From a virus (lineage: Duplodnaviria > Heunggongvirae > Uroviricota > Caudoviricetes): 8,054 nucleotides of DNA. Shown here in pieces: positions 6,543 to 8,054 of the stretch; the first letter of the stretch is position 1, and each line of letters starts with the position of its first letter. The DNA is taken from positions 1-8,054 of the IMG/VR virus record IMGVR_UViG_2778261448_000002; one strand, given 5' to 3'. The translations under genes and the position numbers were made by a program. The notes under the pieces were generated by a model, which saw nothing but the letters and a program-made list of their open reading frames with translations, ran no database searches and was not told where the DNA came from.

Positions 6543-6629
6543 ATGGAAAACAACAAATCTGCACATTACGTTCCTTTTTTATCTGTAATACTTTTTGTTT
6601 TATGCTGTGCGTGGGCATTATTTTTATAA
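6543..6629 (+). CDS. Small hydrophobic peptide ORF (28 aa, MENNKSAHYVPFLSVILFVLCCAWALFL); toxin-like or leader peptide candidate
   Basis: ATG at 6543 preceded by AAGGTGAG at 6-nt spacing. Single C-terminal hydrophobic helix with a CC pair. Lies in AT-rich intergenic DNA; a perfect palindrome AACCCTATCAGGGTT (6505..6519) sits just upstream of the RBS. Confidence 0.3.
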   Translation: MENNKSAHYVPFLSVILFVLCCAWALFL

Positions 6630-6830
6630 AAATATTCACAGATAAAATATACCCGCCAAACCTGGTTAAGTGCGGGTGCGTTGAGGAGGCCTGACACATC
6701 AGAGGTGGCGAGGGATTCTTCATCATCTAACCAGCAACCTTAACTTTGGGATTCACTAATTTAAGTACGCTAAAGGTGTTAAAACCCCGAGCCACCCAGG
6801 GACTGCTTGAAAAGTATATAAAAATCAATA

Positions 6831-6862
6831 TCAACTATCGATTTTACCTAAATGTTATGATA
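6831..6862 (+). promoter_or_regulatory. Candidate promoter with extended -10 (TGtTATGAT) for the nuclease-domain gene
   Basis: TG at 6854-6855 and hexamer TATGAT at 6857..6862, with a weak -35. A 5-bp palindrome GCGTAtcatTACGC (6873..6886) lies in the predicted 5' leader. Confidence 0.3.
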
Positions 6863-6923
6863 TAAAAAGTTAGCGTATCATTACGCATCCACAATATTCG
6901 AAGGTTTCCATATTCAATGTAAG

Positions 6924-7604
6924 ATGTCGACAAAGGCCTATTATTCTATGGATATCATAACAAAAATCATTGAAGACGCTCAAAAATTACAGTTATCCTC
7001 TGCAAATGAAGCTGAAACACGCCTTAAGATCATAGATCAAATACTCTTTGAAGTATTGAAATGGACTAGGGATGATGTATCGGTAGAAACTCGAGTTAGC
7101 GAAGATGGCGAGACTACTTTTGCTGATTATGTCATTAAAACAGCAAGTACTGCGTTTATAATTGAAGCCAAAAAAATTGGTCAGGCATTCGACACAAAAC
7201 AATTCGATAGGAGACTGAAACTCAACAACAATAATCTTTCCGGTCCTTTTGGAGATGCCATAATTCAAGCAAGAGATTATTGTAGAAAACTGAGCATTCA
7301 ATTTGCTGTTGTAACTAATGGTGAACAATGGGTTATATTCCCAGCAAATAGAACGGATCAAGTTGCATTCAACTCATCTTACGCAATTGTATTTAACAAT
7401 TTACAAAGTGCACTTAAAGATGACTATACAGAATTTTATGACTTATTATCAAGAAAAGCAGTTATAAACTCTAGCCTTGAAGTTACTTTATTAGGCAACA
7501 GGGAAGATCAAATAGAAGAAAGACGCTTAAAAAATACAGTCCGTAAAAGTATCTCTTATGATGCAAAGAATCCAATATACCCATTAGTCGAAGAAGCAAT
7601 TATC
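6924..7604 (+). CDS. IS1-interrupted gene encoding an HsdR-N-like PD-(D/E)xK nuclease domain protein (N-terminal 227 codons); candidate defense/exclusion gene
   Basis: ORF track 6924..7685; the last 26 codons and the stop are IS1 sequence, so native coding ends at 7604. Translation has the type I restriction R-subunit N-terminal pattern: ETRLKIIDQILFEVLKW ... FADYVIK ... AFIIEAKK ... QFAVVTNGEQWVIF (E / D / E-x-K catalytic triad arrangement). Visibly AT-rich and on the opposite strand to the phage early-right genes. Confidence 0.6.
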
Positions 7605-8054
7605 GGTAGTGACTCCAACTTACTGATAGTGTTTTATGTTCAGATAATGCCCGATGACCTTGTCATGCCGCTCCACCGATTTTGAGAACGACAGCGACTT
7701 CCGTCCCAGCCTTGCCAGATGTTGTCTCAGATTCAGATTATGTCGCTCAATGCGCTGAGTGTAACGCTTGCTGATAACGTGCAGCTTTCCCTTCAGGCGT
7801 GATTCATACAGCGGCCAGCCATCCGTCATCCATACCACGACCTCAAAGGCCGACAGCAGGCTCAGAAGACGCTCCTGTGTGGCCAGAGTGCGTTCACCGA
7901 AAACGTGCGCCACAACTGTCCTCCGTATCCTGTCATACGCGTAAAACAGCCAGCGCTGACGTGATTTAGCACCGACGTAGCCCCACTGTTCGTCCATTTC
8001 CGCGCAGACGATGACGTCACTGCCCGGCTGTATGCGCGAGGTTACCGACTGCGG
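7605..8054 (-). mobile_element. IS1 family insertion sequence (partial; continues beyond window end)
   Basis: Terminal inverted repeat GGTAGTGACTCCAACTTACTGATAGTGTTTTATGTTCAGATAATG begins at 7605, and the following sequence matches IS1 throughout, with scattered substitutions relative to the K-12 IS1 sequence as recalled. Confidence 0.9.
7620..8054 (-). CDS. insB: IS1 transposase InsB, C-terminal portion (5' end beyond window)
   Basis: ORF track 7620..7997 translation [22 protein letters not shown]...[69 protein letters not shown] is InsB. The frame stays open to the window edge. Confidence 0.85.

Follow-up and report, generated by a model that had tools for sequence, protein, structure and literature searches.

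The question raised by this locus is which gene has been interrupted by an IS1 element, and what that gene does when it is whole. The window, meaning the whole stretch of 8,054 nucleotides analyzed here (positions 1 to 8,054 of IMG/VR record IMGVR_UViG_2778261448_000002, a virus of the Caudoviricetes), carries at 6924..7604 (+) an AT-rich open reading frame (ORF) of 227 codons, counted from its first ATG, which runs on the strand opposite to the phage genes and is cut by IS1. A sequence-only reading of the window had seen in this ORF the nuclease end of what may be an inactivated or novel anti-phage system. Based on identity to a published protein and on comparison with IS1-free prophages, the locus can be assigned with little room for doubt to an IS1-disrupted allele of DS-14, a single-gene defense system; the inactivated anti-phage system is thereby borne out, and the novelty is not, as DS-14 was published in 2025/2026.

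Identity with DS-14 and interruption by IS1

The 219 residues encoded between the RefSeq start of the gene at 6948 and the IS1 junction are all identical to those of WP_040091717.1 (219/219), which the DefensePredictor study (DeWeirdt et al., Science 2026, PMC13092281; bioRxiv 10.1101/2025.01.08.631726) calls DS-14, with RMOR as its working ID. In Table S6 of that study, RMOR has the highest log-odds of the table (14.71), is classed as “Remote defense homolog” and is marked “defensive = TRUE”, and in Table S7 its −log10 efficiency of plating (EOP) is given as 4.70 for Bas50, 3.70 for Candy and 1.15 for RB69, with no other phage given (PMC13092281). Bas50 is a Vequintavirus and Candy belongs to the Tevenvirinae. 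Table S8 records RMOR as replicated, assigns residues 270-569 to an AAA+ ATPase (HHpred ORC1, probability 0.99) and names bNACHT09 as the nearest known defense protein by the authors' HHblits (54% coverage, probability 99) (PMC13092281). One sentence of the preprint places DS-14 among 14 PD-(D/E)xK proteins that have a sizeable additional domain (bioRxiv 10.1101/2025.01.08.631726). The main text of the Science paper does not discuss DS-14 and gives no mechanism for it (PMC13092281), a literature search found no later paper mentioning DS-14, and a full-text search for WP_045170235 and WP_040091717 gave no match, WP_040091717.1 appearing only in the supplementary tables of PMC13092281. What the paper offers is plaque data and domain labels (“AAA+ ATPase”, PD-(D/E)xK); the defense role of DS-14 is thus already known, and its mechanism is not published.

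The DNA of 6700-7604 was found in only 8 of 5,426 complete Escherichia coli genomes, at 99.7-100% identity, and the same eight genomes hold the full gene, which is intact in seven of them. The intact gene (2,451 nt) encodes a protein of 816 aa annotated as “P-loop NTPase fold protein”; a Rac-like prophage carries it as a solitary gene on the opposite strand. The window holds this same gene, with DNA 99.8-100% identical to the intact E. coli copies, in the same prophage setting and as a single unit. The intact copies differ in encoding the full protein, whereas the window copy lacks the NTPase, the winged helix and the tail at this position. In the IS1-free prophages, the ORF continues to 816 aa instead of ending near the junction.

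Aligned with the intact gene of locus L001, the window is fully identical through 7604 (...gcaattatc) and unrelated beyond. The end of IS1 begins at 7605 with ggtagtgactccaacttactgat..., where the intact gene of L001 continues after gcaattatc with acttcattttcagatacaata... The cut thus falls after codon 227 from the ATG at 6924, as the sequence-only reading had placed it, or after codon 219 from the RefSeq start at 6948, and the complete 816-aa frame is broken at 7604/7605. From there the frame runs into the element as a fusion ORF (6924..7685, +, 253 aa), the IS1-encoded tail of which (7605..7685, +) consists of 26 foreign codons (7605..7682) and a stop. The element itself is a divergent IS1 variant (7605..8054, −), with its terminal inverted repeat from 7605, that runs past the window end, and its transposase ORF (7620..7997, −) matches Pfam DDE_Tnp_IS1 (E=8.1e-69). 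It is approximately 88-93% identical to the IS1A/IS1B copies found in 4,964 E. coli genomes, and the window's IS1 junction is absent from all complete E. coli genomes of the collection, which suggests a source beyond the E. coli genomes sampled. An AT-rich nuclease ORF cut by IS1 is real and far beyond chance.

Because everything past residue 219 (or 227) has been removed, including the switch and any sensor, the window copy should have lost its defensive function, and the allele is almost certainly non-functional. Its product would be a nuclease domain without switch or sensor, extended by a 26-residue foreign tail. The window locus itself therefore matters little, as an almost certainly dead copy of a defense gene with published activity; the interest lies in the intact protein, which gives strong (10^4-10^5-fold) protection against Vequintavirus and T-even-like phages. 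For annotation, IS-disrupted DS-14 copies should not be counted as active defense, and entries of approximately 815 aa labeled “P-loop NTPase fold protein” or “HsdR N-terminal domain-containing protein” can be relabeled as DS-14 family.

Domain architecture of the full-length protein

The 5′ fragment retained in the window encodes the whole HsdR-N-type nuclease domain and part of the following linker. The 227-aa fragment passes the cut-off of Pfam HSDR_N_2 (PF13588; E=3.8e-7, 30.6 bits, cut-off 25), as does the full-length protein (26.9 bits), and lies just under that of HSDR_N (PF04313; 24.8 bits versus 25.1); the fragment gave no match to a well-characterized phage structural or replication protein. 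The peptides quoted in the sequence-only reading (ETRLKIID, FADYVIK, IIEAKK and VVTNGEQW) are all present in the fusion ORF, and the PD-(D/E)xK catalytic core, as read from the sequence, spans 7125..7280 (+), with D at 7125-7127, E-A-K at 7164-7172 and Q-x-x-x-Y at 7266-7280. In the protein, D60, E73-A74-K75 and Q107 are conserved in 103/103 and Y111 in 102/103 cluster representatives, and these residues are also invariant in alignment A2. A structure comparison showed that the fold of the domain resembles a solved HsdR nuclease domain. A true HsdR-N-type PD-(D/E)xK nuclease domain is present, with the catalytic D and E-x-K in place as had been proposed.

The further claim that this is the nuclease fold of a type I restriction R subunit holds for the domain and fails for the protein as a whole. 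DS-14 shares the nuclease domain type with HsdR, but it has no superfamily 2 (SF2) translocase motor and no HsdM/HsdS partners. Helicase and ResIII matches are missing, the NTPase being AAA+/STAND-like, and the NCBIfam model of the EcoAI R subunit reaches 17.6 bits versus a cut-off of 550. No hsdM or hsdS lies beside the gene in the E. coli prophages, no neighbor family is conserved over 67 loci of the family, and a single type I methyltransferase occurs among the 127 nearest neighbors. The assignment to type I R subunits was rejected on these grounds. PADLOC v2.0.0 assigned no family to the full protein, to the fragment or to 10 distant relatives, all of its matches being weak and partial (DrmMI N-terminus, PDC-M54B, type IIG restriction enzyme N-terminus and mad8). 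A search of NCBIfam gave no match above the cut-offs, and no significant relative turned up among the PDB sequences, whether the protein alone or a profile was used as the query.

An AlphaFold2 model of the full protein was built from 36 homologs (mean predicted local distance difference test score, pLDDT, 81.5). In this model, the N-terminal HsdR-type PD-(D/E)xK DNase (residues ~1-180) is followed by a variable and partly disordered linker (residues 181-285, from pLDDT and conservation), a P-loop NTPase with a helical insertion of ~90 residues (residues 286-490), a helical lid (residues ~491-605), a winged helix that completes a module of NTPase, lid and winged helix (residues ~286-705), and a variable tail of ~110 residues that consists of three long helices (residues 706-816). 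The unseen remainder of the protein, for which a helicase or ATPase had been suggested, is thus an ATPase, namely an ORC/STAND-like P-loop NTPase, and not a helicase.

The NTPase matches Pfam KAP_NTPase (PF07693) weakly, with 25.6 bits versus a cut-off of 20 (E=8.9e-6, residues 291-454), in a region shared with sub-threshold matches to AAA_16 and AAA_22 and with a weaker match to nSTAND5. Transmembrane helices within or flanking the P-loop domain are a feature of classical KAP NTPases. The maximum 19-residue Kyte-Doolittle hydropathy of the protein is 1.32, no window reaching 1.6, so that transmembrane segments are absent and a classical KAP NTPase was rejected. The model has the AAA+ base, lid and winged-helix fold as in the ORC/Cdc6 clade, and its structure comparison scores include 12.0 with CED-4, 11.8 with NRC2, 11.7 with BrxC, 10.7 with RdrA and 10.2 with EfAvs5. 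The C-terminal winged helix resembles the DNA binders MarR, PadR and TubR and the winged helix of ORC2; the net charges of the domains (+1 for the winged helix, −1 for the tail, none strongly basic) point to no dedicated DNA-binding module, although they are not decisive.

Among the 103 full-length representatives, the Walker A lysine K304 is conserved in 103, D433-N434-x-D436 in 103, R466 in 100 and R558, in the lid motif G-(N/D)-x-R, in 102, and the linker and the C-terminal helices are least conserved. As the nuclease and NTPase motifs are near-invariant, both enzymatic centers are under strong selection, and a variable linker and tail are as expected for recognition surfaces. The invariant D-N-x-D of the Walker B region (103/103) has Asn where most P-loop NTPases carry the second acidic, catalytic residue. 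Judging from the sequence, this substitution could bring slow hydrolysis and switch-like behavior.

Possible modes of action of intact DS-14

DS-14 is a nuclease fused in cis to an NTPase with lid and winged helix, it forms a single-gene unit, and its protection in the published assays is strong but narrow. An Avs-like arrangement of effector and central NTPase on one polypeptide (nuclease 1-180, NTPase ~286-490, Walker A and B invariant) suggests, with about even confidence, that the intact protein is a sensor and effector in one, built like a small Avs/NLR protein. In the uninfected cell, the nuclease would be restrained by the NTPase module. Certain large myoviruses (Vequintavirus and some T-even phages) would then provide a specific cue that drives nucleotide-dependent oligomerization; the nuclease domains would thereby meet and be licensed to cleave DNA, and the cleavage would stop phage replication, possibly at a cost to the cell. 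Nuclease-bearing Avs3 and Avs4 are precedents for such an NTPase-switched nuclease. A size-matched precedent is EfAvs5 (~849 aa), in which an effector, nucleotide-binding, helical and winged-helix domains (NBD-HD-WHD) and a small C-terminal sensor are activated by oligomerization and filament formation (PMC11897194). A specific trigger is favored over general DNA restriction because the affected phages fall into two unrelated myovirus groups, and Table S7 does not list T4, lambda, T7, T3, T5 or the Bas siphoviruses. Taken jointly, the identity with DS-14 and the Avs/NLR-like mechanism are judged somewhat probable.

Several observations weigh against the Avs/NLR-like mechanism. The best structural matches of the NTPase are ORC/Cdc6 initiators, which score above STAND proteins, and the lid motif G-(N/D)-x-R is one that we take to resemble the sensor-2 motif of Cdc6/Orc1. 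The Pfam nSTAND5 and NACHT matches are under their cut-offs, and no AVAST or NLR model of PADLOC matched E. coli DS-14 or the 10 distant relatives. The match that the authors themselves obtained with HHpred is ORC1 (PMC13092281). By the criterion of ≥400 aa (PMC13581612), there is no large C-terminal sensor, as only the winged helix and ~110 residues follow the lid. The association of the family with defense islands is modest (approximately 7-8 of 127 flanking ORFs, with no control set for comparison). From Avs/NLR-like STAND proteins (EfAvs5 SIR2-STAND, PDB 9JAP; Avs3/Avs4), DS-14 thus differs in an NTPase that scores higher against ORC/Cdc6 than against STAND, in the Asn at the usual second acidic position of Walker B, and in lacking the ≥400 aa sensor that defines ~90 Avs families in the survey of Lee et al. 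2026, which comprises 589 STAND clades (PMC13581612).

The same features lead to the strongest alternative, in which DS-14 would be a DNA-sensing, ATP-dependent, restriction-like nuclease. Its ORC/Cdc6-like AAA+ module, together with the winged helix, would load or polymerize on phage DNA, on a replication or packaging intermediate or on modified DNA, as ORC, TnsC, MuB and BrxC do, and the HsdR-type nuclease would cut there, giving direct immunity and not abortive infection. Type I enzymes use the HsdR QxxxY nuclease to cut the DNA on which they are assembled, and DS-14 carries this type of nuclease with its QxxxY motif. The best structural matches are DNA-loading AAA+ proteins, in line with the authors' match to ORC1, the winged helix is of the DNA-binder type (MarR, PadR, TubR and ORC2), R558 of the G-(N/D)-x-R lid motif is conserved, and one record labels the N-terminus “predicted type IV restriction endonuclease”. 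However, neither a methyltransferase nor any other self-protection partner was found in the 67 loci, no domain is strongly basic, and STAND modules, too, routinely include a winged helix, which there does not bind DNA. Furthermore, phages with ordinary DNA (lambda, T7, T3, T5 and many Bas phages) are not listed as restricted, whereas Vequintavirus and only some T-even phages are, a host range predicted neither by plain restriction nor by a hydroxymethylcytosine (hmC)-dependent type IV model. A DNA-sensing nuclease is therefore a possible but doubtful account.

Between these accounts, and offered as a tentative idea that is on balance unlikely, DS-14 may represent a distinct minimal class of immune NTPases, in which an ORC/Cdc6-like AAA+ module, and not a canonical STAND module, is joined to a type-I-restriction nuclease without a large sensor. 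Such a protein could recognize a nucleic-acid structure or a replication/packaging intermediate of large myoviruses, or could sense a protein very compactly by its variable linker and tail, and could then cut DNA after assembly on it; an autoimmunity cost might account for the frequent knock-outs described below. A minimal ORC/Cdc6-like immune-NTPase class of this kind has not been published. The DS-14 family straddles the ORC/Cdc6 AAA+ proteins and the STAND/NLR immune receptors, and DS-14, being among the smallest effector-NTPase defense proteins, is a tractable model for an NTPase switch that licenses a restriction-type nuclease.

Knock-outs of the same family were also observed elsewhere. 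IS903B interrupts the gene in two Serratia marcescens plasmids (H29 and H30; NZ_CP011641.1 and NZ_CP029448.1), and the copy of E. coli strain C8 (L003 9249-11697), the eighth of the E. coli genomes mentioned above, carries a 2-nt deletion. Inactivation by IS elements or frameshift is therefore recurrent, and the repeated knock-outs may hint at a fitness or autoimmunity cost.

For the window copy, these cases bear on the reading in which the locus is altered and not dead, the truncated 253-aa product (nuclease plus IS1 tail) still being made and being active in its own right, for instance as a nuclease freed from regulation or as a weak restriction factor that acts alone. The fragment does retain a complete nuclease domain with all catalytic residues, its own start and the upstream region, and the fusion ORF terminates at an in-frame stop within IS1. 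Against this, the architecture of ~800-870 aa and the invariant NTPase motifs are kept in the 103 representatives, which implies that the nuclease cannot do without the NTPase module; a DNase that is always active would be toxic to the cell and would be lost; and the IS903B and frameshift knock-outs of other copies form a pattern of simple gene loss. An active truncated product is accordingly considered very unlikely, and the loss of function set out above is preferred.

Among other known systems, BrxC/PglY (BREX) and RdrA (RADAR) belong to multi-gene systems, whereas DS-14 is solitary with the nuclease fused in cis, and, in comparison with the KAP-type NTPases (RdrA and the KAP-fusion defense proteins, PMC13552941), DS-14 has no transmembrane segments. 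Upx, a terminase sensor, is, like DS-14, a single protein with a PD-(D/E)xK effector, and it is triggered by a phage protein; unlike DS-14, it has ~1,200 aa, a C-terminal nuclease and no NTPase, and it was rejected for these differences, with no Upx model among the PADLOC matches of DS-14. Hailibu (DUF4297-HerA) and HepS (a HEPN protein) were likewise rejected.

Family, genomic setting and neighboring features

A word-indexed search recovered at least 419 relatives, nearly all of 813-840 aa and aligned over the full length, from Enterobacteriaceae, Pseudomonas, Vibrio, Shewanella, Endozoicomonas and others. When the representatives of clusters at 50% identity were searched exhaustively with a profile, 2,025 matched at E<=1e-3, 1,357 at E<=1e-10 and 574 at E<=1e-30, with the layout of ~800-870 aa kept. 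A scan of species-representative genomes found 79 loci in Alpha-, Beta-, Gamma- and Deltaproteobacteria, Melainabacteria, Acidobacteriota, Chloroflexota, Clostridia, Planctomycetota, Myxococcota and one archaeal metagenome-assembled genome. The gene is also on 28 plasmids, 14 of them conjugative, and tblastn against 50,697 phage records gave no match. The family is therefore large (at least 574 cluster representatives at 50% identity, E<=1e-30) and is spread over many phyla on prophages, conjugative plasmids and chromosomes.

The partner genes that the sequence-only reading had allowed for did not materialize, either in the E. coli prophages or across the 67 loci, where no neighbor family is common to more than 5, and the absence of a partner gene is concluded from this. 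The 127 nearest flanking ORFs include integrases, resolvases, IS110/IS66 transposases and many housekeeping genes; approximately 7-8 are known defense genes (HerA, Drt8, Shedu SduA, MzaA, Septu PtuB, a type I methyltransferase and mad8). In Pseudomonas putida, a family member stands alone between housekeeping genes, a Marinomonas homolog lies beside HigB and Fic modules, and a Vibrio homolog is located in a PM2-like prophage. This homolog, from Vibrio europaeus (L006), lies between two copies of a PM2/corticovirus-type P2 major capsid gene, at 5241-6062 and 20560-21351, and seems to have been carried as cargo where two tail-less prophages, in tandem or side by side, meet.

In the IS1-free E. 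coli prophages, the intact gene is flanked on one side by the replication module (ydaS/ydaT/ydaU/ydaV, DUF1627 and DUF977) and on the other by DUF1367, DUF1364/YbcO and a DUF1133 Q-like gene, and the right-hand neighbors in the window are the same. The accessory slot equivalent to the lambda ren/nin position was thus correctly recognized from the window. The flanking DUF977 gene is present in 4,102 E. coli genomes, versus the eight with DS-14, and the slot just past DUF977 holds varied cargo in other E. coli prophages, with decayed genes in a third strain. In E. coli EC-JS426 (L091 3828-4727) and VR50 (L090 3744-4802), the cargo comprises a SMEK-domain protein, a methyltransferase and HokD in one case and QueH and HokD in the other; a SMEK-domain protein also makes up DS-27, a validated system of the DefensePredictor tables. 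The slot looks like a defense and accessory hotspot of Rac/Qin-like prophages. The composition of the gene is foreign to this setting: GC content is 0.344 over 6924-7604 versus 0.487 in the neighboring phage genes (4841-6269), in agreement with the AT-richness noted at the outset, and the intact gene has 34.6% GC versus 49-50% in its flanks. It is near certain that DS-14 is an AT-rich single-gene insert, carried by Rac-like prophages in the variable slot that separates their replication module from the nin/Q module.

That DS-14 works for the prophage itself, for instance in replication or recombination as an ORC-like accessory, and fended off phages in the screen only incidentally, is most improbable, for although the gene adjoins prophage replication genes and its NTPase resembles replication initiators, it lies on the opposite strand with this foreign composition, is as sporadic as the genome counts above show, is absent from the phage records, occurs elsewhere alone among housekeeping genes, on conjugative plasmids or beside toxin-antitoxin and defense genes in many phyla, and protected by factors of 10^3.7 to 10^4.7 when it was carried on a plasmid and not in a prophage (PMC13092281). 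An ORC/Cdc6-type role in origin initiation was rejected for a gene that is solitary, sporadic, of foreign composition, found in housekeeping, plasmid and island contexts, and fused to a nuclease.

Upstream of the gene, an AT-rich, non-coding leader occupies 6270..6923 (+), with a GC content of 0.361 versus 0.487 in the flanking phage genes, and its RefSeq counterpart (L001 8571-9248) contains no annotated gene. A consensus scan of the leader found no promoter-like site on the + strand. The leader probably carries the gene's own promoter, and leader and DS-14 gene probably came together as one cassette.

A second AT-rich ORF (37% GC) is found at 2200..2793 (+), also on the opposite strand, between the lysis genes and DUF1441. 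Its product of 197 aa has a hydrophobic segment at the N-terminus and weakly matches the histidine phosphatases (His_Phos_1, E=5e-5), and from its sequence the ORF looks like another accessory insert of unassigned role. Finally, the prophage carries two tRNA genes, tRNA-Gly(tcc) and tRNA-Thr(tgt), at 4361..4514 (−), where they separate the Q-like DUF1133 gene from the holin genes.

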